From positions 107,848 to 171,847 of the forward strand of contig NW_004798120.1 in the NCBI RefSeq assembly GCF_000002075.1: a DNA stretch of 64,000 nucleotides, in the 5' to 3' direction. The position numbers and the translations under genes were made by a program. How positions within the stretch are numbered: the first letter of the stretch is position 1; each line of letters opens with the position of its first letter. Shown here piece after piece: positions 15,300 through 47,030 of this stretch. The notes beneath the pieces were generated by a model. It was not told the origin of the DNA, searched no databases, and saw only the letters and a program-made list of their open reading frames with translations. Source of the DNA: Aplysia californica (taxonomy: Eukaryota).

Positions 15300-18200
15300 A
15301 CCTCCCAAGCCCACTACTAGACTGGGCCAAAGAAAGTGGAAGGAGCGGCCTTTTAGACAGCCCGACCGACGACGAACTACAAAAAATAGACTTTAAAAAG
15401 GCACAGAAAAAAAATCCAAAAAGAACAGACGAACGACAACAGCAACGGAAACGACAGTGACGGATAGGAAGAGGACATCAAACGACGTAGTACAACAGAA
15501 CAGATTTCAACTACTCAGCGGAACTGACGACGATAGCGACGGTGACAAGAACAGAAAAAAGAAATTAGCAAGGACAGAAGACAAAGTAGAAAACATGACG
15601 ACTGACAGTGACTCATCTGAATTCTTTTAATGATGTTCCCATTGTTTAATTCTTTTTCCTTGAGCACCACAGGATGAATGAACTGAAAGTAATGACACTG
15701 AACACAAGAGGAACGAATGGTAAGCTGCCCCAACTAACACACCTCATTACCACACACAAGCCAGACTTTTTATTACTACAAGAAACTAACATAGACACCG
15801 AATACAAAGCACAAGCATACACACACTCACTAGGGCTCAGTAAAGGCATTTTCAGTCTAGGTAAATTTTGCAGAGGAACAGCCATACTACAAACATCCAA
15901 CAGATGACACATCACACAACACACAACAAACGAGACAGGTAGAATAACCACCGCAACGATCACCGACAAGACAGACACCTACAAATTGGTCAACATTTAC
16001 GCACCGGCTGTCCCAAACACCCGAACAAGTTTTTACGAAGAGCTACAGAGTACACTCAGCACATCTACACACAAACTCATACTGGCGGGAGATTTCAACG
16101 TCACTTAAGACGACAGAGACATAATGGGGACACAGGTAGGAAAAGGGCGACAAGGCAGAACAACACTACAACAAATAATAGACACACACTATCTGAAAGA
16201 TAGCCACAGAGAAACACACGTAAACAAAAATGATACAACGCACAACAATTCTGGAATAGATAGAGCAACCAGGATAGACAGAATCTACGTACACGACACT
16301 GACAAAATCGCACAGTGCGAACACTTAGACCACACGTTGACATTCACAGACCATAAAGCAGTAGTAACAACAATAAACACAAACAACACGCAGCCGAGAC
16401 GATCACCGCACTGGAAATTTAACAACACACTACTCGACAACGAAGAATACACAACCATGATTACAGAAACGATCAAACGACACACACAAAGACTACAAAC
16501 TAACAATGCTAGAGAGACATGGGACAACTTAAAACGTATCATTAAACTGGACACAATATACAAAGCCAAAGAGATCTGTAGAAGTAGGAGACATAGACAG
16601 CAACAATTAGAATACAGAATAGAACTCGCAAAACAGTTAGGGTTACAAGAAACGCAAAACATAGTGGAATTCAGGGAAGAGTTAGAAGAACTAAATCAAA
16701 TAAAATATAGAGGAGCTCGCATTCGAACTAAATACCCAACAATAAAAGACGAAAAACCAACACCAGTATACCTGGCTTTGGAACAAAACATACAAAAACA
16801 TAGAATGATAACAGCAATTACAGACGCACAAGGCAATACACAAAAAGACACACATAAAATAACAGACGCCTTTCAAAATTTCTACAGCGCACTTTACGCT
16901 GAACAAGATACTGACGAATCAGTACAAGACAATTACATGCAACACGCCGCACAACTCACACACGACCAACAACAAATCCTCGAGACAGATATTTCCATAA
17001 CACACCTGCAAAACGCACTCAACTCGATGAAGAAAAACACCTCGCCCGGCCCTGATGGCTTGACAGTCGAGTTTTACCTCGCTTTCTTCCCCGTTTTGGC
17101 CCCCCTCTTTACAGCGATGGTAAAAGAAAGCTATGAGTTAGAATGTTTGCCGGAGTCACTAAACTTATCGTACATATCCCTCATTCCGAAAAACTCAGGC
17201 TCCCCTCTGGGAATGAAAAACTACCGTCCCATATCTTTATTAAACGTAGACTACAAAATTATCTCCAAGACCCTAACGAACAAGTTGAGACCGTTCATGC
17301 AACACGTAATACACACAGACCAAGCCTGCGCAGTACACGGTATATAGAACAATACAAGATCACAACCACACACTTAGGGACATTATCACATACGCAGAAG
17401 ACAAACAGTTAGACACATGCATACTTTCCCTAGACCAGACTAAGGCATTTGACAGAGTGTCTCATTCGTTTTTACACAAAGTTTTAGAAAGAAGCAATTT
17501 AGGCCCAAAGTTTCAGAAATGGATTCAAATATTATATAAAAAAACACAATCAAAAATTCTAGTTAACCATACCCTGTCAGATGCCTTCAATATAGGAAGA
17601 TCAGTTCGACAAGGAGACTCCCTAAGCCCACTTTTATATGTATTAAGTTTAGAACCTTTACTAAATTCAATCCGAAAAGACCCACAGATTGCAGGTATCA
17701 AACTCCCGGGAGGGGGGGAACAAAAGTTAATAGCGTTCGCGGACGACACACATTTTTCCCCAACTAATTCTAAATCTATACTTCAGATCGTTAATCATTT
17801 TCGTTATTTTGGCAGGGGGAGCGTATCAGAAATTAATGAAACAAAAGGTCAGGCGATAAAGTTAGGAAAATGGAAAGATAGGGCAAACGATCCGATCCGA
17901 TTAAATTGGGTGCAAGAAATAAAAATTTTCGGCAATTACTATAGGAAATCAAGAGACCAAAACTCCCCAACTAAATAGAATGACCTTGTCGAGCAGATCC
18001 AAACCCTCTTACCTAAACTCTATTACAAACAGACATCAATTTCCGGCCGCAGTATTTTAATCAACACACTCGTCATTCCAAAAATTAACTACGTCACACA
18101 AACGATAGACCCACCACCCCAGTTTCTCAAACGAATAAAACGACTCATCAGACAATTTATTTTCAAAGGAACTATCCAACGCATCAGACATACAACCTTA

Positions 18201-19503
18201 ATACAGAGCAAGTTCAACGGAGGGATACAGTTACAAGACATAGAGACAAAAACACAAGCCTATATAGATTACAACACATTAGGAACATTGCGAACAACAA
18301 AAAAGACACCCCTTAGCTCACTACTACATAGGATTACACGTCACAAACCCAACACCGATGGACAACACAATCCCACACTTTTTCGGACGACAACCTACAT
18401 TTTACAAAACATGCCTTCGAGCATACAGACAACACGCCAAATTACTCACTCTCGCACGCACAACGAAAGACATATACACAACGCTAGTAAAACGACAAGC
18501 AACACCATTATACGATCAAATTAAAAGAGGTAGAATATACGCAATCCTAGACTTTTCGGAAACATTTCAAAATTTACACATCAAAGACACAACACCCTTC
18601 CAAAAACAGATCACGTATAGGATACTTTACAACAACACCCCCACAACTCAAGCAAAGAAACACGGAAAAGATAGGTGTAAAATATGTAGACGAAACGAAC
18701 GAGAAACAGAAGAACATATATTCTACACATGCCCGCACATTCAACAGACCAAACACGCACTAGCAAAATTACTCAACACAAACCCAGACACACAGGTAGA
18801 CATATACAAAGCAATCTTTCTAAACATACTCCCACCACAAACAACAGACAACCACAGCATTAGACTTCAAATCTTAGCAGCGTACAGAGAAGTCATTTGG
18901 CAAGTTAGACTACAAACAGCCTTTAACGACACTACCCACACACCCAACACTATTTCGCAATATTTTCAACAGAAAATTACTTACACCTTTAAAACAGAAA
19001 AAAATGGGCAGTATTTGAAAGATATTTGAGCTGTGGCGAGAGTGAGTGAGTAAATGATTTGAAAGCAAGCAAAACAACGAGGACAGAGACCGAACGGACG
19101 AATTGTGTTAGACAAGACGAGACTGCTCTGTGAGCACAGAGTAACAACGACTCGACAACCCAGGGGTCGAAAGGCGACGAGTGGAAGAGAACACAGCTCA
19201 GGAATAAACGAAATAAAATGAATTATTAAATGGAATATGTACATGGAACGAACGAGAATGAATGAAAAATCATTTATGTGTATGCAAGAGGGGGAGGGGG
19301 AAGGGGTACGAAAGAAAAAGCGGACGGGGATGAGCCGCAAGTGTATTTGTCGAATGAATCTGTGTGAGAAAGAAGGGGACACTAATGAGCCCCACAGTGA
19401 ATGACTCTTGTGGTGTTATGTTTTTGTTGTAAAACCCCCCAAAAATAAAATAAAGGCTCAAATGAAGCCCAAGGGGAAGGGAAAAAAAAAAAGAAAAAAA
19501 AAA
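15300..19503 (+). mobile_element. Tx1/L1-clade LINE, decayed: ORF1 3' end, disrupted ORF2 (15674-19029), 3' UTR and poly(A)
   Basis: APE endonuclease motifs LNTRG, LQET, NIYAP, GDFN, RIDRIY, TDH. RT motifs SPGPDGL..EFY, NYRPISLLNVDYKI, DQTKAFDRVSH, VRQGDSLSPLLY, FADD. C-terminal CKIC..ETEEHIFYTC zinc knuckle. Internal stops and frameshifts at ~15905, ~16105, ~17345, ~17976 and ~18260-18350. AATAAA ~19444 and A-tail 19482-19503. Confidence 0.95.
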
Positions 19504-27103: not shown

Positions 27104-28165
27104 CTATTTCTCCTCTCGTTTTCCCAGACTTCGTGTTGTGCCAAGTTTCCGCCACAAAGCCGCCACCTGCTGTCTGTAGCTGGAGTTGTAAGTGATGTAC
27201 ACAAAGATGTTGAGAGAGGAGCAGAGAAGAAGCAGAGAGATTCTGACAAGTCCCACAAGGCTATAGATTTCTCCAAGCTGTCTGAAGTCGTTGAACTCTG
27301 GCTCCACATAGGAAGCGTACATGATGAGAACGCTGGGTAGATTGCAGACGACAAACATGGCGGCCACAACCACCACAGATTGCACCGCCCTCAGCTCTTT
27401 TCCCGAGAGTTGTGCCCCCTTGGACGGCTCCTTGCTTCCTGGCAACTCTGAGGACATTCGGAATTTTGTCGCCTGTTTGAGTTTTCCGGTTAGGACAAAA
27501 AGACAGCTGATGACCACGACCTGAGAGATGGTTGGGTCTGCAGCCAAGACCAGGGGGTACAAAATGATCACTATCGTCTGCCGGTAGGGCGAATAATTTG
27601 GAATAACTACCGTTTTGTTCAAACGTGGGATAAATGCCCACCGAAATCCTATACTGAGAAACAAAGGAGCATAACAGGCAAAGCAAACTAGTGTAAGAAC
27701 AAGTAGGGTGGCCAGGACTTTTTTGATTGTGAAAATAAATTTGAACTTGAGCGGGAGCGCCACGCAGCAACACTTTTGAACCGTGAGGTAGACCGTGAAG
27801 AAGGTGGACATTTTGTAGGTCATCTGGAAACTGTAGAGCACCTGGACGTACAGCGTGTAGACAAGAGGGGGTGACGTTCCTATCCGGAAATCGAGAAGTG
27901 GATTCACAATAAAAAGTACAAGGGAAAGCAGATCGGTAACTGTGAGCGCAAAGAGAGTGATTGATGTCGCACTTTCCAGTATACCTGTTCTTCGAAATAT
28001 CTCCACGTTACACAGATTTGTGAGGATGCCAAACACAGCTATACACATGTTGGTGGTGCGGATGACATTTCTGATCATCTCAACACTGTAGACAACCGGG
28101 TGTGACGTCACTGGTGCAGTTACAGTACAGTTTAGCACACACGTTTCTGATACAACAGTTGTCAT
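27104..28165 (-). CDS. Intronless rhodopsin-class (7TM) GPCR, peptide-receptor-related, resembling gastropod chemosensory receptors (~353 aa from the ATG at 28165)
   Basis: Uninterrupted ORF with seven hydrophobic segments: TM1 FGILTN, TM2 LTVTDLL, TM3 end QKCCCVALPLKFK (DRY-position variant), TM6 FVVCNLP, TM7 SSLNIFVYITYNSSYR. N-glycosylation site NCT near the N-terminus. The ORF-track start at 28234 is not an ATG. Confidence 0.9.
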   Translation of the reverse strand: MTTVVSETCVLNCTVTAPVTSHPVVYSVEMIRNVIRTTNMCIAVFGILTNLCNVEIFRRTGILESATSITLFALTVTDLLSLVLFIVNPLLDFRIGTSPPLVYTLYVQVLYSFQMTYKMSTFFTVYLTVQKCCCVALPLKFKFIFTIKKVLATLLVLTLVCFACYAPLFLSIGFRWAFIPRLNKTVVIPNYSPYRQTIVIILYPLVLAADPTISQVVVISCLFVLTGKLKQATKFRMSSELPGSKEPSKGAQLSGKELRAVQSVVVVAAMFVVCNLPSVLIMYASYVEPEFNDFRQLGEIYSLVGLVRISLLLLCSSLNIFVYITYNSSYRQQVAALWRKLGTTRSLGKREEK

Positions 28166-28931
28166 GTTTTCAGTCACTGATTTCGATGTGAAGGAACGTA
28201 AAACGGCGCAAATTTTGTTTTCAAAGTGATACAAACAACCTTAGCTTAGCTCATTGAAGACGTGACATCTGGTCAATGAACAATGATTGAAGACGGGCTG
28301 GTTCGGGCACTTAAAAAAGAAGCAGCACATACAGAGTTTATTTGCTTTATCTGAAACTTTAAAAAAAATACAAGTGACAGTGTGATTACTATGACATGTG
28401 CAATTTCGTGTTTGGTGATAGGAAATGTGCTAAAACATTACCATTGGCCAGCTTCTGGTTGGGGTTGTATGTGCCCTCTATGGTACGTCCTTAGGGTGTT
28501 AAAATGTCCTTGAAGAAATCAACAGTGTTCGTTTCACCCACAGTCATATATTATGTCTTAGCACAAAAACCTCTATTGTATTCGTTTAACTCTGGTTGGA
28601 TGAACAAAGGGATCAAAGGAGGTACTACTTGAAGTAGCTCACGTGGGCTGCTCGCTGATAAAAACAACTATGAAGAGACGAATGTAGTTTCTGGGACACC
28701 TGTAGAGACAGAAAGGCCTTGACATCTAACTTTCACTTGTAAGATTGAAGGCAAGCGAGGCTGAGGTAGACCCAGAGCAAGTTACTTGGAAAGCCTAAAC
28801 AGATGGGCGACGCGGAAAGATCAGGATTACGTAGTTTTGTTGAGAGCATCAGAACAAAGAAACGACTTGCGAGCCTTGATCGACGATGTCTGTCGTAGAT
28901 CTGACAATTTTTTGATGAGAGTGGCCGAACC

Positions 28932-30647: not shown

Positions 30648-33262
30648 TTACTTTTACTTTTACTTTTTTCTTCCGCTTGTACCCTGGGGTGTCGCGGGGA
30701 GACACGGGCGTCTGTCTGCAGCAAGTCGTGTGGCCTGTAGGAGGGACATCCCGTGAGCTCTAAGGGTGTCTGCCACAGATTCACTCCATCGTCGCCTTGG
30801 TCTTCCTCTGGCTCTCCATCCAGAATATTTAGTGTTCTATGCTCTCAGAGCTGGATGGTTTTAGGGCATCCGCGTGAGGTGTCCGAACCACTTGACCTTT
30901 TGTTTTTCAATGTGTGATAGGACTGGTGTTGCTCCCACGGTGTCCCTTATGACTTTATTTTTAATTTGGTCTCTTCTTGTTTTGTTGACCGCTCTTCTTA
31001 AGCATTTCATCTCGCATGTGACCTGTTTCCTCTCTTAGGGCTTTTGATAGGGACCATGTCTGGCACTGGTATGTGAGGGTTGGAAGGAAAATGGCGTTGA
31101 TGAGCTTCGCCTTGGTGCTCATGGGGACATTGGGATGTTTCAGGAGAGGGCCGAGTTGGTAGCTGACTGCGTTGGCTCTCTGGCATCTAGTCTCTATTTC
31201 TCGATCTAATTTTCCATTTTCTGTGAAATTGCTGCCCGAGTATTTTAATTCTCTGCTTTGTTTTAGTTGGGATCCATTGATGTTGATATCCACTTTGCCT
31301 GGTCTCCTGTTAATTGTCATGACTTCTGTCTTGCTAATACTGATCTTCATGCCATATTTTTGGCAGCTCGCATTTAGTTGGTTCATATGCTCCTGTAGCT
31401 GGATCTTGTTGTTAATCATTGCCAGGTCGTCTGCAAACATGAGTTCGTTGAGTGCCTCTGGGTCTGGATTGGCCTCTTTTGTTATCTGGTCTATGTAGAT
31501 CACGAAGAGCAGAGGGGAGAGATTCTGACTCCGGATGTTACTGGAAACCAGTCTGATGTTCCACTGGTAGTTCGGACAGCGCTTCTGCTGTTGGCATAGA
31601 TAGCCCTGATGTTGTCTAGCAGTTGTCCCTTGATGTCGTACTGCTCTAAGATCTTCCATAGCTTGTTTCTATTTACTCGATCAAAGGCTTTTTCTTGATC
31701 CACAAATACGAGATGAAGATCTTTGTCGTGTTCCAAAGCCCTCTCACACAGTTGTCGGAGTGCGAAGATTGCATCAGTGCACCCTCTTCCTTTTCTAAAA
31801 CCAAACTGGGCGTCACTGAGAAGACGTTCGGCTTTTGCGCGAGTGCGTCGCTCTAGGATTTTTGCATACATTTTCCCCGCATGGCTGAGAAGAGATATGC
31901 CCCTATAGGTGTTGCAGTTGCAGTCTTTCTTGCTGCTCTTTTTTTCCATATTAGCACCACTATCGCATTTTGCCAGTCTGCTGGTACTTTTCTTTCTTTC
32001 CATGCTTTCTGGAAGACGATTGTAAGCCAATGTATTCCGGTTTCGCCGCAGGCAAGGATGGCTTCGGTTGTGATGCCATCGTCTCCAGCTGCCTTGTTCT
32101 TTGGACTAGTCTTCAGTGCTTCTCTCACTTCACTCTCCAGGGTGGTAGGTTCTGAGTGCTCAGGGTAGTTGGCGGTGGAGGGGCACTGTGTGTTTTGTGC
32201 CTGTACTCCTGATGGGTTTAGTAGTTCTTGAAAATATTCTTCCCATCTTTTTATTATTCCTTTCTCTTCGTGTAGAGCTTCTCAATTAGTATTGTTGATG
32301 ACAGTGGTGGGTACATAGGGTTCGTCTCTCACTTTCATTGTCTTTACCTTCTTGTAGAACTCTCTTGGTGAGGTCTTGCAGGTTTCACTTAGTTTTTCGC
32401 CATACTGGGTCCATGACTTTTCTTTTGATGTTATAACGACTTTCTTGCTGTGTCTTCTTGCAAGTCTATATTTAATGTAGTCCTCTTCGTTTTTTTACTT
32501 GACCAATACATTATACAGTCTCCTTTTTTCCTTGATAGCATCCCTAACTTGGCTGTTGCTTTTCTGTGTTTTCCTCTTGTTTTCTTGGTACCGCAGACTT
32601 CTTTCATTGTGTCCAGGAGAGTTGCTTTGAAGGTATCCCAAGCTTCCTCTACGGTTAGTATTGTAGAGTTGATAGAGCCTAGCTTTTCATTTAGCGTGCT
32701 TCTGATCTGAGCCTGCACCTGATCATCTCCAAGTTTATGCCTATTTAGTCTCTCTTGCTGTCTTTTATGGTTTTTTGGTTTTCTTTCTTTCTTGGTGGTC
32801 AACTTTGTGATGATTGGCCTGTGGTCTGTGTCCAGATCTGCATTGGAGATGGCTCTTGAGTCTGTGATTGTGATCCGCAGTCGTGATCTCGTTAATATGA
32901 AGTCGATCTGTGATGAGACCATGATGTTGTTCCATCTGTATCAGGTGTAGATCTGAGAGGCCCGGTCCTGGAAGAAGGTGTTGGTGGTGAATAAGTCGTG
33001 CTCTGCACACAGTTCCAATATATGATTGCCGTTATGATTGCATGGTGTTCTGTGGTCACTGTGTGGACCCAGGTGTTTTTTCCACGGTGCTCTTCTCTCT
33101 CCGACTCTTCCGTTGAAGTCTCCCATTACATAAAAGTCTTCCTCGTCTGGAGTGCTGCTAATTAAGTCCGAGAGTTGTTCGAAGAAAGAGTCCTTTTCTT
33201 TGTCTGAGTAGGAGTCGTTGCACGGTGCATACACCTGGATGTAGTTTGTGGTCCTTTTGCCC
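30648..33262 (-). mobile_element. RTE-clade LINE, 5'-truncated and decayed
   Basis: Endonuclease motifs QVYAP, MGDFNGRVG, NTFF, SQIDFIL, TDH. RT motifs KAAGDDGI, YRGISLLSHAGKMYAKIL, QFGFRKGRGCTDAIFALRQL, FVDQEKAFDRV, LSPLLF, LMFADD. Multiple frameshifts; (AAAGTA)n tail at ~30648-30668. Confidence 0.95.
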
Positions 33263-33368
33263 TCTACTCTCTTTTATCTACTCTTCTAAATCTCACTTTT
33301 CTCTTATTGATCTACAATGAAACCTGCCATCAATTCTTGACCAGGTACTGTAGGTTAACAGTATACTC

Positions 33369-36439: not shown

Positions 36440-36742
36440 AACAGGAAAATACAACCGGCAGTCGGCAGAATGACAGAAAACGGCGCGAGAGCTGTTGTAA
36501 AAGTTGGAATGACATTTCGCCAGCTGATCAGTTTGGCGGGAAGTCAACCTGTTGCTTGCTTCCGCTGCTTGACACTTGACAACTTGACTGACACTGACGC
36601 TTCAGAAGTGCCACTGACTAGGCCTACTCCACGCTTCTCAACCTCGACAACTAGATCTAGATCTAGATCTAATAACATAATTTTACTCCCGGCGGCTTCG
36701 TGCGAAGTGTATTCTCTAGCCTACTCTAGGTTGCCCGTAAGT
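36440..36742 (+). promoter_or_regulatory. Probable promoter and non-coding first exon of the SRA gene (donor GTAAGT at 36737; acceptor before 37511)
   Basis: Locally CpG-richer sequence, a consensus donor, and an acceptor ttcccgtcag 32 nt upstream of the ATG at 37543. The TSS cannot be determined. Confidence 0.55.
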
Positions 36743-37252: not shown

Positions 37253-37542
37253 TATTATATAAACGTGTACATGAGAAGAAACGGGTGCATGACTAAAAAA
37301 AAACATTATTCAGGATTGAACTTACTCACTTTCTGTTTCAACGGCTGCAAAAAAAATTTTGGTTAAAGTTATAATTAACTATTTTTATATTGTCATTTCC
37401 CGATTTTTTAAAGCTCATTTTATAATCTTTTTGTTGTTCTCACAGTGTTTATGTTCCTCTCATCCTACTTGATTGATATAAATTATATTATGTTTTATAA
37501 TTCCCGTCAGGTCTATCTCTGGCACAAAGTGTTGCTGCGAAG

Positions 37543-38565
37543 ATGTCAAGTTACGAATCGATCAGGTTAAAGAACCTGGAAGACAACAAGCGAGTGCTGG
37601 CTTCCTTTGGGCTGCTGGACCCGGTGAGTGAGAATTGTGATCTAATTCTGCTTAAAAAGTCTTAAGGGCTTATTTTTATTATTTATAGTATACATCATTT
37701 TTAACATTAGCGTGTGTTGCAGATAAATTATACGAAGTGACTATTTCTCCGAATGTTCGGAGAAATAGTGCTGATCTTTATTTCTCCGAACGGTTTCCGG
37801 CTTCCGGTCTCGTGATTTTTTGTCTATTTATTTTTTGCTAGAGTTTGGCGCCAACTTTCATTCTGCCTCTGGCCTCTGGTCTGGGAAGGAACACCGCATG
37901 GCAAGCCCGCCTACAGACAACCTTCAGTAACACCCACCACCATCATGCACATGTACACACACTAACTAAACATGACCAGTGGGCAACTTTTGAACGTATG
38001 ACGAGCTGAGCTGTGGACGGAGAGACAGTGTGAGTGAAAGAGCGGGTGAAAGGAAGAATGTGCGAGTGTATCCACAGGCGACAGCAACTACAAGACAAGA
38101 CGACGACACCGACCCCCTGGCCTGGTCCACAGCTCACGAAAGAAAGGAATGCAGCTCAGGCAGTGTTTTGCCTATATTATTGTCCATGGTTCGCAGGGTG
38201 CAAAGGAAAGAATGATATTTTCTTTGTGTGTGCCTGGAGGGAGGGGGTGGGGTATGAAGAAAGTCATGCGGACAGGGATGAGCCGCGGGAGAGAACACGG
38301 GAATTGAATGAGTGAGGGAAACTGAAAGAGACGAACGACTCATGAGCCCTGGAGTGAATGGATCCTGTGTTTCTATTTTTGTATACTTTGAACTGTTACT
38401 GAATACANNNNNNNNNNNNNNNNNNNNNNNNNNNNNNNNNNNNNNNNNNNNNNNNNNNNNNNNNNNNNNNNNNNNNNNNNNNNNNNNNNNNNNNNNNNNN
38501 NNNNNNNNNNNNNNNNNNNNNNNNNNNNNNNNNNNNNNNCCACACACAGACACACTCACACACGC

Positions 38566-38596
<31 letters not shown>

Positions 38597-41500
38597 GGAG
38601 CAAATTTTTGGGTCTATATCTATTTCAATTTTCAAGAGCTAGTCTAGATGAGATTTTTAGATGAGTGTAAAAACGTGAAAAAGAAAGGTTTCACAACAGA
38701 AAGAAATCAAAATTAGAACAGCCCATAAACAACAACAAACATTAACAAATAAGGGCGTGTGTCCACCTGTCCGAAGAAGATGGGCTGTTTTAACCCTAAA
38801 TGTGCGTAATAAAAAAAAAAGGACAGGATATTACATGTAAATTATGGAATCACACACATTAAGGGGCTTTGCCAGTGTCAGTACATTGGTCGCAGCAGTG
38901 ACAAACGCAGATGTCAGTTCTATGTGTCGTTATCAATAACCCTCCGTAGATCTAGATCTAGATCTAGACAGCACACGAGTGAACACAACACATTACGTTT
39001 AAGAGCAGCACCCTTCATAGGCAACACGCCATATCTGTAGCGAAAAACTGTTTGGAATTGTAGCATTTCTTTATATAAATATTTACTGCGGACATTTTTT
39101 GGACCGCTTAAACCATATTGTATACGAACAATCTTTGGTAGGCTTATACTATAATTATAGATCTATATAATATCCTAAATTTGCGAGAAAGGATGTGATT
39201 TCAGAGTGTTCGGAGAAATAGTGCCCAGCTTTATTTTCCCGAACGTTCGGAGAAATAGTGCCCAGCTTTATTTTCCCGAACGTTCGGAGAAATAGTGCCG
39301 GCCTAAATTATACTGGCATGTGTGTGGCATTAGAACCCAACTGCAGGTCACAATCCAGAGGAAATTGTATTAATTTTAACGTGTTTTGGCATGTTTAACG
39401 TTAGAAGTCATGAAATCTGGAAATTCTATTGAGTATAGGTTTTTAACTATTTTCATGTTTTGGTTTAGAAAGAAATTAAATGAGTGTGGGTCAGGTGTTA
39501 TGCACTGGTCCATTTATTGAGTCGTTGACAGTGCTGTAGCTTCCTGTGTACGCTTGATATTATAAGGGAGAACTGAGGCTGTATTTTGTATTGTAGTGTC
39601 ACTGTGCTATAATCAACCTCCTTGCAGTTTGGAATGAAATATTTACTTGTTTGAACATGTGTTTATAACTTGACACAGATCAGAAGAAATCTTTCTTTTG
39701 TGCTAAGTTTAAGACTGTGTGTCTTGTTATTCTGGTTCTTTACTTGAATTAACAAACCATCCCCAGTTCAAGTCCTTGCCCAGCATTGTAAGGCAGAGGA
39801 AGATACCATCAGCAAAACCAGAATCTGCCAAAAGGAAACGAAGCCGGCCCGTTGATAATACAGATTTTGTTGGGGGATCTATCTATGGAAGTAGGAGGAA
39901 GTCGGCTCGGATTCAGGGAAAGGTAATTAAAAATTGACATATATATATGTTCTCCACAGGTTGTGACTATTCTCTCAGTACTTCTCTGACAAATGGTTTA
40001 TATATTTGACATGTCATAATATAGTTAACAGTATGTCAGAAGGCTGGCTGTACTGTATACCATTTTACTGTCAGCTGCGAAAGTAGCTAAATCTCTCTTT
40101 TTTGTACTCACACATCATGGGTGTTTTGTTTTGTCCTTTAGTGAGTGTGTAGGGATGATATTGTAGCCTTCAACATAGCTGGTTGTAAGAGGTCTACAGA
40201 TACTGATGTTGGAAACTCTGAAGAAATGTATGGTTTTGTGACTTTTTGTTAAATTGTGTGCAATATTGGGAGTTTTATTTCCTCTCGCCAGGACGTAGCT
40301 GAGTATGGACTTAACGATTCTGCTTTAGATGAACCCGAGGACGACAGAGAGAACTATACCCCGAGAGTCCCAGCAAACCGACCAAACTTCTATGGAGCTG
40401 TGCCAGGTTAGTATATTATCCCCTTCTTTATTCTATTTATAACAGCTGCTCATATACAGAATTTTGATAGGTGTGGTTTAATGTGAGTAAAATCCCTCTC
40501 AGACAAACACAGATCAGTTTGAAGGCATTCTTGGTCTGAGTGAAAGAACATAAAAAAAATGAGAACAGATTATTCATCGTGTTGTGTTTGAACAAAATAC
40601 TTATAAATGCATTATAATTTTCCTCGGAGATTGATTCCTTATAGGATATTTCTCATTTATAAAGTTTGCTCACACGATTGCATCACCAAAAACTGTTTTA
40701 GTTTTCACTACTTTTGTTATTGTTTTAACTTTTGGTTATATTAAAGAAGAAAAATTAGGATGGATATGTCTAATTGACATAGAGTTGAGAGTCATGCTAT
40801 CACTACAGTTGAAAGAAATCAGAGGTATAGAAACATTTTCTGTGAGAAGAAGAAACTTTTCCTTTTTCGTCTTTCTGGTGGGATATAGTGTCCACACACC
40901 CAGGTTTGACCCTGACTGGCAAGGTCTTGGTTATCAGCTGTACACAGTCTGCCTGATTTTCTTTGGCCATCTAACATTTTAAGAAAAATATTAAAAGAAT
41001 TTTTAAAAGTAAAGACTCTAACAGCAAAACCTCACATCACTCCCCTCCCTGACCCAGCCCCTTCCTTTTCCCCCCTTATGGCTTTTGTAATAGAGCTGAC
41101 AAATGTAACTACTAATGATTTTGTTTCAGATGTGTCCGTGGGTACGGTGTGGTGGACCAGGATTGAGTGTTGTCGAGACGGAGTGCATAGGTATGTACTC
41201 ATAGACTTAATCTGTTTTGTAGATTCTCTTGCTGAACAGATTGTTGATTGTTGCATGTTCTGACTTGTCTTTGTTGACCTTTTTGCCTTTTGTTTGTCTG
41301 TTTTTCCGGAATAAATTTGAAGAATGCAGATAGTTTGTTAAGACATTTTGAGCACTGTTCTGGGATGATGAAAAAGGTGGGTGGGAGGAGGGCAATTTGT
41401 GGTTGCTTTATTATCAGATGGGAACTTTGAGCTTAGAGACAATAAGAGGTCCTTAGAATCTTATGCTTTACTTTTAAAAGTTTTTTCTTACATCTGCATA

Positions 41501-44500
41501 TCATGATATACATGTTGTGGTCTGTTACCAAAGGCACAGTGGTGTCTGTTGTCAGTTGTATTTTTTACATTTTTAGTCTGTTATTCTTTTTTTTTTGGAA
41601 AGAGAATGGTGAAATTCCTAGATGTCCCTTATTAACTCTTGTATGTTGTATTTTATTTTGTACATTTGTTGTGCAAAATTGTTACACCACTTTCTGTAGT
41701 GTACGAGAAGTCATGGTAAGGCTCTTCATCTTTCTCACAATGAAATTTGATTCCCTTGTTTGTTTGAAATATATTTTATTGAGCATCTTTTTTTTTTTTT
41801 TTGCTGCGTCAATTCTTTTCAAGCTCTCCTATGTTCTAAATTTTGTTTACAGAAATGAAGAAAACATGCTCAGTGGTTAAGCTGCACTCCACATTTATTA
41901 ACCCAATCCTTGCTTTTGCGACCCGAAGAGACATGCACCATGCTGTTCCAATACTCTTTAGTGCTATGTCGCTGACTCATTACTAATATAATATGAATAA
42001 GTCCTATTTTGGCAACCCTTAACTCCTGAGCTACATAAGGATTGGTGTTATTATATCATATTCTTTTTATATGATTTTTTTATTTTTGTTGTTTCTTGTG
42101 AACAGACCCACAGTTGCTGGCATTCACGGAGGGGAAGGGGGAGCTTACTCCATCGCTCTGTCTGGAGGATACGAAGACGATGTGGACCTGGGAGAGTGTT
42201 TCACATACACAGGAGAAGGTCAGTCATGTTTCAAAAACTCAAAAGACAGAAATCAGCCTCTCTTTTATTCTGTATATATAAATATTTAGATTATGTGTTA
42301 CAGCTTAGAGAGCCTGTTTGTGTCTTGCACTGATTGTCCTGATCATAGCAATAGATCTGAGATAGTTACTAATTGATAACGTTATATTGTACAAACGCAA
42401 CATTTGGGTTTTTGGTAAGTGGTCTTGTCCGGTATGTGGGACCACTGAGTCAAATGGGTGGCATGAACTTAAAGCCTTGAAAGAGGTGTTGATCCCACAC
42501 CATCCTATGAAGGCCTACACGTCTGTGACCTTGTGAATGCTGTTTAGATGTGCAAGTGGGAAAAGCTATTTGATAAAATTCAACAGCAATACAGTCACTT
42601 TAAGGGGAAAGTGCAAACAAAGGTTATGGCCTAAATAATGCTTTTGTCTTTTTAGCAACCTGTAAGTTCTTTCATCTTTAACTTAAGTTTGCATTTGAGA
42701 TTAGCAATGGTTTATATTTTAAAAAATTGTATTTCCTTTTGTTTGTAAACAAAGGATACTTTCTCTTGTTTGTGCGTTTCAACATTGCATCTTAATGTTT
42801 TTTCCTTATCTTCTTTGACCTCCTGATAATGATTGGTGGGTTTAACTTTCGTATTTATCGTATATTATTGAAATAGAACCAATGGTTTATTTGTTTTGAA
42901 GTGTGGATGTTGATGAAAAAAAAACTTACTAACATGGCATGGAAAAGTTGTACATCTTGTCCAATTAACATATCATGATTTATACCTAAATTTTTTTTTT
43001 GGGGGGGGGTGGCTCTCAAGTTCATCTGCCCTATAGGTGATGTATTACAATACGGTACAGTATGTATCTACTTTTGGTGAAGACGATACTGATCTTGTAT
43101 TTAATCTTTATCTTTTTGTTTGTATTTTTTTACAGGTGGTCGAGACCTCAAAGGCACAAAGACAAATCCCAAGGTATGTGAGATGGTACTCGACTTGTAT
43201 CTCACTAGAGCAAAAGTCAACCTTATGACTTGAGCAAAAGTGAAAATGTCTCGTTATTTCGATTTTTCAGTACGTGAAACAAACCCCTGCTGTTGAGAAT
43301 ACAAAGCTAGTNNNNNNNNNNNNNNNNNNNNNNNNNNNNNNNNNNNNNNNNNNNNNNNNNNNNNNNNNNNNNNNNNNNNNNNNNNNNNNNNNNNNNNNNN
43401 NNNNNNNNNNNNNNNNNNNNNNNNNNNNNNNNNNNNNNNNNNGTGACCGGCTGATGCATGACTGACTGAAAATTACCCTTTTTTCAGAACCTGAGAACGG
43501 CCCCACAGTCCAAGGATCAGACATTGACGCGGGGAAACCTTGCACTCAGTCGGAACGTAGAGACCAAGAACCCTGTACGTGTGATTCGTGGCTACAAGCT
43601 GGACAGTCCGTTCGCCCCAGAGGAGGGTTATCGCTATGATGGCAAGTCGGCATATTTTACTTTGAATTTTACTGTTATCTTCATTTGGGTTGGATAACAC
43701 TTTAGGAAAAATGTGTCACGACGCGGTAGAATCAGGCGCTTGTCAATTTTCGAGCATCTGGAGTTATTGGTATGATCTTAAAGCTTGTTCATTTGACCAT
43801 CTTTTGATGAAAAAAAATACATGCCTTTCGTGAATAAAAGTTGACAGACATATTTGCGATTGAAGGAGGTTGGGATTGCCTGGTTTCAGAGGTAAAATTA
43901 TTGAGAAAATGACCCCCAAAGTTTGGTTATTTCCAAAGCTTGAGAGTCCTTGGAGACTGAAATTTTACATTTGTTGTGCCTTTAGTCAATGTTTTTCAGT
44001 AAAACTCACACAGAAATATGTAAATATTTTTTAATGGACATTAAAGGTGTTGAGCCAAACAGCAAAAATTAGAAAAAAGAATTGTCAAACTGGAGGAACA
44101 ACACCGATACAGTAGAACATGACTACGGTATACAGTAGCGGACCATCCCTACAGCGGGACCTTACCGGTGCCCCTTTTTTTTCCGATGAAAACATAATTA
44201 CCCGTGTTTGGGTTTAACATGACAAGGAAAGGCCTGAACTTGGATATAGCGGGAGAGATCGAGCAAGCTCTAGCTGGGGGATGGGGGGCTGTAGGCGGGC
44301 TCCAAACAGACAGTCAGCGGTGCGGCGTTGTGATTGGCCAGTCCAGTGATGAGTGAGGTGTGGCAGGCAGCAGAAGAGATGGTGTGGAGAGACTCGTTAC
44401 GTGAGCCACTCCAAAAGTGATGTGCCATAGCCCTACTCGCGGCGCACAAGCAGTGGAATTTTAGTTGCTGTAGGAGGTTCCCTGCCGAGCGCCTTCTTAC

Positions 44501-47030
44501 GTTGGGGTCACGGGGGGTCAGCTCCCTATGGCCGCTCTGTCTGGGCTGACTTAAATTTTTGATACTTTTCAACATAACATTTTAGGTGTATCCTTGTATT
44601 TACGGTAATTATCACTTGATGCACCCAAAGCACGCATTTCTGCTCTTGAGACTTAAAAAAGAACGGACATTGTAACTTGTCTGGTTATTTTGTTAGACAC
44701 GCTGAAGTCGGCAATGCTAAATTGTAAAAAATTTGACAAGTGTGAATGAAAAAAAATCTATAAAAATAACGGCCCTACAAAAACTGTCACTCTTTTGGAA
44801 CACGAACGACACAACATTGGTGCAGATACTCAGAAAAGATGGTATCTGCGCATAAAATAGAAAGGAAGGGGGGGCAGAAAGTGGAGACGAAAGCGGACGA
44901 TAGAACATTGTTAGAAAGCAGGAAAGGATGTCGAAATTTTTTTTAGAGAAGATAAATTATTATAATCATCAATATTATTGTTATTATTATTATTATCAAT
45001 ATTATTATTATCAATATTATTATCAGTATATTGTATCAATGGACTGACATTGTTGTTGATACATTACAGTTTGTATGAATAAAGGTCAAAGTTAACCGGT
45101 ACCCCTGTTCCTCCCTGCAGGCCTGTACTCGGTGGAGAAGTGCTGGTTCACCACCGGTCTCTCGGGCCACGGTGTCTGGAAGTTTGCTCTCAAGCGCTGT
45201 GATGACCAGGCACCTCCCTCCTGGCAGTTTGTCTCGGTGAGTGCAACTCCCTCTTTGGTTTCCATAGAAATATCATTGTTAAATACTTAGAATTGCTTGG
45301 ATCCAGAGTATCCTTGCAGGCGGCACATGTCCTTAGCTGCTAATCTCTCCTCTCCAGCGTCCATCCCGGGGTCTTCCTGCTAATTGTCTCCATGAGGAGC
45401 CGGTATGAGACACGCCTGCCCACTCCTCGGAGTGTTAAAATACAAGGTGTCTAAACAAAAGGGGCGGACCCTTTTAAAGGGCAATAAGTTAGTTATCTTT
45501 GCAACAATTTTGAGCAAAACTTTGAGCGAATTTAAAATTCAACCAAGGGGATGTTAAATTTTTCAATATAAAGAAAACTAATGTGCTCAAGAAATATCAA
45601 GTTTTAAACATTTCTACCAAAAGTTGAAAGAAGTAAAACATAGATCTTTAAAAATCAACAAACCACCCTTTAAGTATGGCACTTTTATCATCTTGTTTCA
45701 ACTGTGGTGGCGGATTGTTGGAGGGTGCCACAGATAGGCCATAGGCTTTTTCCATGCAGTGAACGATCATTGTCATGTCCGCCAGTCCATGTACTTCTTT
45801 TTGATCAAACCTTAGAACCCCCCCCCCCCCCCCCCCCCCCCGCGGGGCAGTGCCACTGACTGAAATGTCTTTAGGCCATTCCCAAAGGGGGGGGGGGGCA
45901 TTTCTCATTCTAGTGCACAGTAGTATTGTAAATGGGCTGATCTAACAATGTCATTCTCATAACTGTGCCTGAACTAGAACAGGGAATTGCTGCTTTTTCT
46001 TTCCTATTCCTTACCATCGTCATTTCCTTTACTTCTTTTGTATGTTTGTCACATTCTTGTGACCTGCTATTTCCGGGGTGCCCTGATAGTCGAAGCAGAC
46101 TTTGTGCTGTTGAAGCTAGAGAGGTGAGCAGATTAAGTCTGATTCCCTGTAAGGACTTCTCTGTTGATATCCACCCCTTTGCGCTCATATGACCTTTTAT
46201 GCAGTTGGGAGCGCTGTAAAACCTCTACTAAAACTAAACAAAAACCTTAGAAAATATCAGCTGTCTTGTTTTTGGTTTTAGTAAGAGTTTTACGGCATTT
46301 GCAACACAATAAGTGTCGAAGATTTGAGGTGTTACAAGAGAGTAACAAACACAAAAAAGAAGGAGAGGAGATAAAGACGATAGACGTTTGACAGGAAAGA
46401 AGAAGCAAACCACACCAGAGCTCCCACCCACCAACCACCCACCAACTGTCTTGATGTTACCTGATTTCTATTTGACTCCTGAGGGAAAAGTGAATTGTCT
46501 CAGACTGTGACTTTACTACTAGTGAGTGGTTGAAGGGTGCTATAGTCTTTATCTCACCTCCTTTTTTTTTACATGTTTGTTACTCTCTTGCATCATCTCT
46601 AGTCTTCGACACTTATTTGACCTTATTGTGTTGCAAGTTCCATAAAACACTTACTAAAACAAACAATGTGACTCTACTTTATTTTCCCCATAAACAGGAG
46701 CCAAATTCTCCTGCCAAAGCTACAGATGGAGGTCTGGCTGTTCAGGACAAAACATCTACTACCTCACATGGAAAAGATTCCATCAACGGTACCACAGATG
46801 ACAGGCTTGAGACGCCAGCGAATAAAGACAAAGACGACACGACCACAGAGAAAAATGTGGCTCCTGTTGAAGATAAAGCTCCTCTTCGTGATGAGGAGCC
46901 GGAGGAGGTCGAGGAAACTACTTTGTCGCAGCAGCCAGATGTGTCAACGCTGATGGAAGCGGGTTCGGACCTCGGCAGTTCACAAAGCTCAACAGTCAGT
47001 GAAGTGGCGAAAGGGAGGACAGAAGATTAG
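37543..47030 (+). CDS. Stand-alone SRA/YDG-domain (UHRF1-like methyl-CpG reader) protein, 388 aa; exons 37543-37623, 39767-39922, 40292-40406, 41130-41190, 42106-42218, 43136-43173, 43488-43641, 45121-45236, 46698-47030
   Basis: Nine phase-consistent exons total 1167 nt. The SRA domain reads [163 protein letters not shown]. It is flanked by a ~110-aa N-terminus and an acidic, low-complexity tail. Confidence 0.93.
37733..39303. mobile_element. Mutator (MULE)-like non-autonomous element in an SRA-gene intron
   Basis: Perfect 9-bp TSD TAAATTATA at 37724-37732 and 39304-39312. Inverted sub-terminal arrays of ACTATTTCTCCGAA(C/T)GTTCGG at both ends. Confidence 0.8.
37885..38407 (+). mobile_element. 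Diverged Tx1-family LINE 3' fragment nested in the MULE-like element
   Basis: Shares ordered blocks with 18890-19420: tggcaag..ctaca.ac..cctt, tgagctgtgg, gcggac.gggatgagccgc, atgagccc..agtgaatg. Confidence 0.65.
45816..46240 (+). mobile_element. Short retroposon family B copy, tail-to-tail with a family-A copy (46268-46445, -)
   Basis: Homologous to 9934-10328; ends cctctactaaaactaaa. Confidence 0.85.

Follow-up and report, generated by a model that had tools for sequence, protein, structure and literature searches.

The stretch of Aplysia californica DNA analysed here, the window (64,000 nucleotides), contains a gene for an SRA protein without a RING domain that belongs to an old animal-fungal family apart from UHRF1. 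The gene is real, expressed and annotated in the database, where it is mislabelled as UHRF1. Read from its sequence, the protein is likely a hemimethyl-CpG reader whose N-terminal helix is predicted to recruit HELLS, a composite reading that we put forward tentatively and hold at close to even. A textbook case is thereby reassigned: the yeast protein described as a stripped-down UHRF1 homologue falls in this family of its own, kept by many invertebrates beside a real UHRF1, and tables of gene presence and absence in which the two are entered alike as "UHRF1" therefore confound two genes.

Six-frame reading combined with splice signals placed the gene on the forward strand in nine coding exons spanning 37543 to 47030. 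The open reading frame runs for 388 codons without an internal stop, which rules out a pseudogene, and the spliced model is identical, letter for letter, to a 388-residue database protein (P0001) whose source label is Aplysia californica. Eight introns interrupt the coding part, seven of them GT-AG and one GC-AG (43642-45120), and one more lies in the 5' UTR. The exons are as follows.

36606..36736, + strand: non-coding 5' exon, start not defined, joined to the next exon by one contig of run X8
37511..37623, + strand: first coding exon, start codon at 37543, residues 1-27, with the CDCA7-like helix (residues 3-21; pLDDT 93-97); joined to the next exon in contigs
39767..39922, + strand: coding exon 2, residues 28-79, basic stretch and RRKSAR motif (39893-39910); splice model and contigs
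40292..40406, + strand: coding exon 3, acidic linker into the SRA; splice model and contigs
41130..41190, + strand: coding exon 4, SRA; splice model and contigs
42106..42218, + strand: coding exon 5, SRA thumb (V141) and 5mC pocket (Y160, D163, Y172, T173); splice model, PDB alignment and contigs
43136..43173, + strand: coding exon 6, first part of the long finger loop; splice model and contigs
43488..43641, + strand: coding exon 7, NLR end of the finger, PVRV and YDG, followed by the GC-AG intron; spliced to exon 8 in contigs from runs X8 and X18
45121..45236, + strand: coding exon 8, end of the SRA; splice model and contigs
46698..47030, + strand: coding exon 9, acidic low-confidence tail and stop; splice model, AlphaFold2 model and contigs

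Contigs of public runs reproduce the splice joints at the expected intron lengths, the joint-bearing runs being guessed RNA or unlabelled and none on record as RNA. Five joints were present in two of the four runs examined, two of these also in a third, and the remaining joints and the non-coding exon were likewise seen in run contigs. Spliced contigs back the GC-AG intron, and the joint across the intron within the finger loop (43174-43487, 314 nt) was found in contigs of three of the four runs. The original prediction had described eight introns filled with SINEs and MITEs; the number holds for the coding part, but "filled" is overstated, because very high repeat depth sits in coding introns 1, 7 and 8, while 39307-43316 has single-copy depth in run X4 (probably DNA). 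Its argument that the gene is not contamination stands, as repeat-bearing introns, spliced contigs and orthologues in other molluscs together rule out that source. Elsewhere the window holds an intronless GPCR-like ORF (27104-28240, - strand), two broken LINE-like elements (16109-19029, + strand, and 30961-33273, - strand) and an aminotransferase-like exon at about 1700-1830 (+ strand), none of which showed a connection with the SRA gene.

The SRA profile PF02182 matches two loci in the Aplysia genome, the SRA-only gene and a canonical UHRF1 (G000:C269) with UBL, Tudor, PHD, SRA and RING exons and an NKR finger. Comparison of intron positions, as had been proposed, found none shared between the five SRA introns of the SRA-only gene and the four of UHRF1. 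Across the SRA region the SRA-only protein is 58% identical to its own genome's UHRF1 (96/166) and 66-67% identical to two chytrid proteins. It shares the SRA fold, pocket and thumb residues with UHRF1 and UHRF2 but lacks their UBL, tandem Tudor, PHD and RING domains, has an NLR finger with a six-residue insertion, and has no insert before PVRV. Humans are not known to have any such gene besides UHRF1 and UHRF2. A truncated or broken UHRF1 is ruled out by the separate full NKR-finger UHRF1, the lack of shared introns and the AU rejections given below. The genome also holds CDCA7 (G000:C748), DNMT1 and HELLS (G000:C92), the last recognised by its motifs and with a CC2-like exon. PF00145 gave six matches in this genome (DNMT1-like, DNMT2-like and two bacterial-type, judged by motifs), none of them DNMT5-like, and DNMT3 was also not picked up. 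Two short contigs (G000:C2252 and G000:C4072; L014, L179, L180) carry intronless bacterial-type cytosine methylases and an SNF2 gene, and are probably bacterial contamination of the assembly.

The protein is laid out as an N-terminal helix, an R[RK]SxR motif, the SRA domain and an acidic tail. SAD_SRA is its sole Pfam match (residues 113-269; 172 bits against a cut-off of 30.7; E=7e-51), and Pfam found no UBL, tandem Tudor, PHD, RING or zf-4CXXC_R1 domain in the 388 residues, whose start and stop are fixed by the model and contigs. The AlphaFold2 model has high confidence in the helix (residues 3-21) and in the SRA, lower confidence in the finger and none in the linker and tail; it fits UHRF1 SRA-DNA complexes at 1.8 A rmsd (Foldseek E=2.5e-18). 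Pocket and thumb residues Y160, D163, Y172, T173 and V141 align with human UHRF1. Over 140 aligned members they are conserved in 140, 126 (N in 14), 121 (F in 18), 138 and 135 cases, respectively, and the residue before V141 in the thumb is T in the Aplysia protein versus H in UHRF1. The R[RK]SxR motif lies upstream of the SRA in 126 of the 140 and might, as a guess, serve nuclear import or nucleosome contact.

The long finger motif is split over exons 43136-43173 and 43488-43641. PDB alignments confirm the original prediction that the loop has a six-residue insertion and NLR in place of the NKR of human UHRF1; the same differences separate it from the UHRF1 of its own genome, and N-x-R-T closes the longer loop. 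An insert of about 15 residues found before PVRV in UHRF1 is missing, as had also been noted. Its absence is not the fungal mark it was taken for, since a glaucophyte RING-SRA-RING protein (P0238) and seven NKR-finger proteins lack it too; by this comparison the insert looks like an animal-UHRF1 insertion, and only the finger is diagnostic.

Searches with one Aplysia exon, a chytrid query and a Kwoniella query returned 628, 528 and 809 proteins, of which the best 120 were examined in each case; representatives at 50% identity gave at least 150 matches, and names were looked up for 28. The long finger was found in 111 of 112 listed matches that cover the finger start, and the loop was present in 22/22 named fungi among the matches listed for the chytrid query and in 120/120 rows listed for the Kwoniella query, contrary to the possibility, named in the original prediction as one that would refute it, that fungal proteins lack the loop. 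Since the loop itself served to select members, part of the invariance of N189, L190 and R191 follows from that selection. Named animal members come from Sycon, cnidarians, molluscs, annelids, Lingula, bryozoans, barnacles, Daphnia, an ostracod, thrips, spiders, pycnogonids, Plectus (two copies), echinoderms, hemichordates and Branchiostoma. Named fungal members come from chytrids, Allomyces, Hyaloraphidium, Entomophthora, Acaulospora, Saitoella, Pezizomycetes and Basidiomycota, so that chytrids, Blastocladiomycota, Monoblepharidomycota, Zoopagomycota, Glomeromycota, Ascomycota and Basidiomycota are all represented. Vertebrates, tunicates and holometabolous insects did not appear among the named long-finger matches listed, and no unicellular holozoan member was identified among the matches listed. 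The loop had been called fungal-type and the gene one retained in some invertebrates: the loop does run across fungi, but it extends from sponge to amphioxus and is better termed opisthokont-type, and the invertebrate members cover a broader range (sponge, cnidarians, protostomes and deuterostomes).

The resemblance to the Cryptococcus Uhrf1 class was correctly recognized. The C. neoformans H99 protein UHRF1_CRYN9 (P0417), which we take to be CNAG_00677 (Uhrf1/Uhf1) from species, strain and name, is SRA only, without Tudor or RING, and carries the same long finger. It has the helix (40.6 bits) and an RRxSxR-type motif, shares 100 of 173 SRA residues with the Aplysia protein (58%) and falls on the same branch; its finger differs at one of ten positions, and it has T at the same thumb position. 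The traits of the Aplysia family (finger GTxxx[PR]xN[LR]R, helix, R[RK]SxR, no RING) are those of the Cryptococcus Uhf1 type. The two proteins differ in that the Aplysia one has a longer acidic tail and that Cryptococcus Uhf1 acts alongside DNMT5 in a yeast that has neither canonical UHRF1 nor CDCA7, while the Aplysia gene sits in a genome with DNMT1, UHRF1 and CDCA7. The supplement of PMC10538959 records HELLS in C. neoformans and CDCA7 as absent, and a further member, P0326, corresponds to XP_024511987, the accession scored there as UHRF1. Fungal members have been counted elsewhere as UHRF1 lacking RING, and one has been described as a stripped-down UHRF1 homologue in a 2026 review, which lists as open whether such adaptors work beyond C. 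neoformans (PMC13297926).

The statement that Cryptococcus Uhrf1 binds hemimethylated DNA alongside Dnmt5 is in the published record: that report describes selective binding of hemimethylated DNA, a fall in methylated CG from 31% to 11% of wild type on Uhrf1 loss in clr4 mutants, and almost no 5mC effect of uhf1 deletion alone, the protein acting parallel to H3K9 methylation (10.1101/149385). We consider it probable that the SRA of the family would flip 5mC into the conserved pocket and that N-x-R at the end of the longer finger would read the opposite strand; by analogy, we infer hemimethyl-CpG binding in the animal members. Finger sequence sets SRA specificity, and in UHRF1 the finger carries it, with N489 needed for maintenance (PMC6816099). 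In animals the longer finger might instead read another base or context (symmetric 5mC, 5hmC or damaged bases) outside maintenance, or the protein might not be a reader at all. Such altered specificity would be in keeping with the report that finger swaps change SRA specificity (PMC6816099), and also with the T that replaces the H of UHRF1 in the thumb. An octopus protein, YDG-OCTBM, a short SRA-only mollusc protein beside UHRF1, has moreover been dismissed as lacking key CpG-recognition residues, mouse D474, V451 and R496 being named in that context; the accessible text of the paper drew no fungal or CDCA7 link (PMC9476566). Judging by species and description, this is probably P0089, with 129 of 173 SRA residues identical to the Aplysia protein. 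We nevertheless regard altered specificity as unlikely, given that the pocket is conserved and that the Cryptococcus member, with a near-identical finger and the same T, selects hemimethylated CG (10.1101/149385).

We next turn to descent. The main tree used 67 rows and 164 columns, without those of the finger. In it a branch with support 97/99 and length 0.65, the bootstrap being not fully settled, sets the 57 long-finger rows apart from the others, and 23 named fungi with five unnamed rows form a branch (95/93) with no named animal inside; the animals lack resolution at the family base. This tree supersedes an earlier FastTree of 357 rows (P0247 missing), in which the NKR group fell within the family, close to the animals, and forks stayed open. 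AU tests covered 31 rows, including two animal UHRF1 rows, and left out 36 of the 67 (all nine unnamed long-finger rows, four NKR rows, Plectus and 22 others). The suggestion that the domain might group inside metazoan UHRF1 as a recent truncated duplicate fared badly, with AU rejecting both a recent duplicate of animal UHRF1 (p=0.008) and nesting inside animal UHRF1 (p=0.003). The same tests did not reject animals with Dikarya (p=0.216) or, as a deeper sister relation, animal SRA-only and animal UHRF1 on one side (p=0.356), and forcing the animals together, which raised the likelihood by 1.87, was also not rejected.

Vertical descent from an animal-fungal ancestor is very probably the history of the gene and is the simplest reading because insertion, helix and range are shared. 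Of the two origins first proposed, an ancient opisthokont paralogue fits best; a horizontal transfer is not needed, and although the SRA tree leaves it possible it would have to predate sponges. An old passage from a fungus to a stem animal, or an early offshoot of animal UHRF1 that converged on or was passed to fungi, is compatible with the two groupings that AU does not reject, with the unplaced animals at the family base and with the lack of a unicellular holozoan member among the matches listed. We judge such origins highly improbable in view of the members in sponge, cnidarians, protostomes, deuterostomes and seven fungal groups, the single supported fungal side, the likelihood gained by grouping the animals, and the three holozoan protists of a published panel that lack UHRF1 and DNMT1 altogether.

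Of the 319 members whose sequence extends at least 130 residues upstream of the finger, 285 have the N-terminal helix. A helix profile built solely from SRA-only family members matches an exon 7 kb upstream of the Aplysia zf-4CXXC_R1 exon in the CDCA7 locus, in the same reading frame. The spliced CDCA7 helix scores 25.9 bits (family range 12.4-59.5), as high as none of 2000 shuffles (best 4.6), and its exon is the only non-self match under E 0.1 across 178 loci that together translate to 1.29 million residues and include 50 loci chosen because they carry the motif. Twelve of 17 helix residues are identical between the Aplysia SRA-only protein and CDCA7, or 10 of 15 within one exon, where the CDCA7 side reads YENLRKRNLEDNKAV. 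The CDCA7 helix lies about 170 residues before the zinc finger in an exon chain that omitted one 63-nt exon, leaving the frame unaffected, and whose joints were predicted from sequence. Helix, disordered linker and DNA reader are common to the two proteins; they differ in that the reader of the SRA-only protein is a base-flipping SRA rather than a zinc finger, that the helix-region intron lies elsewhere, and that its HELLS binding is predicted.

In frog and human, the CDCA7 N-terminal helix is needed for HELLS binding and binds the HELLS CC2 helix (PMC11343034; PMC11417364), with human residues 108-143 as the HELLS-binding stretch (PMC11417364), and competition with HELLS lobe 1 has been proposed for it (PMC12885070). 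From its place before the zinc finger, we infer that the mollusc CDCA7 helix would be the HELLS-binding one. The helix of the SRA-only protein could dock on HELLS CC2 as that of CDCA7 does, opening nucleosomal DNA for DNMT1 in animals or for DNMT5 or DNMT1 in fungi, a step to which we give somewhat less than even credence. The protein would be a CDCA7-like adaptor with an SRA in the zinc finger's place, helping to maintain DNA methylation without ubiquitin signalling. It belongs to the SRA superfamily and, within it, to the Cryptococcus Uhf1 type; it is neither UHRF1 nor CDCA7, though it likely works like CDCA7, and it is likely an ancient ligase-free hemimethylation sensor and a HELLS adaptor.

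A competing account keeps the family and its hemimethyl reading but has the helix bind another partner (DNMT1 or DNMT5, another SNF2 remodeler or histones) or pack on the protein itself. CC2-like helices do occur in other SNF2 remodelers, eight of 14 pattern matches looking INO80- or SWR1-like, and weaker similar helices occur in nine of 19 NKR-finger proteins. The helix is also weak, at -1.5 to 15 bits, in arthropods that lack CDCA7 and would be expected to depend on such a helix most (thrips, spiders and a barnacle), but strong in Daphnia, and the Cryptococcus work, in its available part, ties Uhrf1 to Dnmt5 genetically and names no physical route or HELLS link (10.1101/149385). Set against this, the best non-self helix match in the scanned DNA is CDCA7, of the same pathway, and an Allomyces arbusculus member has no helix match while Allomyces macrogynus was scored HELLS-negative in a published panel, a single case across different species in which the sister protein P0251 keeps the helix. 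Another partner is, in our estimation, a doubtful though real possibility.

Other SNF2-family proteins (L060, L061, L066, L068, L069, L097, L098, L101) also have, in front of the ATPase, a helix that fits the HELLS CC2 pattern; because of these matches, HELLS CC2 may be their post-HSA-type helix. A complex prediction of residues 1-45 with the HELLS CC2 exon (60 residues) scored 0.00 and 0.01, with no alignments, an uncertain partner fold and no controls, and so weighs neither for nor against docking. An ESM Atlas search with residues 1-85 gave no usable match once SRA clusters were removed, and an own-genome search with exon 1 as protein found only exon 1 itself. A degenerate helix pattern matched 128 times versus 143 for its control, the level of chance; 50 of the 128 were scored (30 returned as loci and 20 picked by eye from listed 35-mers, not a genome-wide census), with a best score of 12.3 bits. 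WDR76, which may have a similar helix, was not among these 50; it also binds HELLS (PMC4714748, 10.1101/650028). Metagenome scans found nothing with the CC2 exon and 80 loci with the lobe-1 exon, of which six were used as CC2 relatives.

Molluscs and cnidarians have both CDCA7 and the SRA-only gene, and because the Aplysia genome holds CDCA7 as well, the SRA-only gene is no simple CDCA7 replacement. In a published panel, five of 50 ecdysozoans have DNMT1, DNMT3, UHRF1 and HELLS but no CDCA7. Two of the five, Amphibalanus amphitrite and Frankliniella occidentalis, are among our matches, the other three are represented there by related species (Daphnia magna and galeata, two spiders and Megalurothrips), and none of the 23 CDCA7-positive panel species is among the named matches listed; this co-occurrence with CDCA7 loss is a lead only. 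We offer as a conjecture, possible but more venturesome than the docking step itself, that a second sensor of hemimethylation able to recruit HELLS was handed down to both animals and fungi, an "SRA-type CDCA7" to which Cryptococcus "Uhrf1" would belong, which would explain HELLS and methylation without CDCA7 in fungi, Daphnia, thrips, barnacles and spiders and leave vertebrates relying on CDCA7 alone. Through the helix one could test by what route an SRA protein without a ligase might support maintenance methylation, and why HELLS is kept where CDCA7 is lost. We found no publication that treats the animal and fungal genes as a single family or connects an SRA protein with a helix that binds HELLS, though coverage of the subscription literature was thin and earlier comparative-genomics work may exist.

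Several members depart from the common layout. Plectus sambesii has two copies (P0165, P0433) with a divergent finger (NCR) and a helix of 21 bits; a published table lists this species as DNMT1-only (PMC12370710), at odds with the view that DNMT3 alone is retained in Plectus. Five proteins (P0137, P0155, P0157, P0187, P0225) join DUF7923 and CCCH fingers to a family SRA, with the helix mostly mid-protein, and represent either fusions or merged neighbour genes, P0236 adds a bromodomain, and P0161 (Nilaparvata lugens) has tandem, highly degenerate SRA copies without the finger or the YxDD pocket motif. SRA proteins with an NKR finger (P0215, P0305, the P0239 group and P0301 from ENA/JGI, with P0196 from MMETSP) form a separate branch (100/99) and are apparently RING-less, by Pfam on P0235 and P0239 only. 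Nine of 19 NKR-finger proteins show the weaker helix and some also an RRSGR motif; the layout of helix and SRA may be older than opisthokonts.
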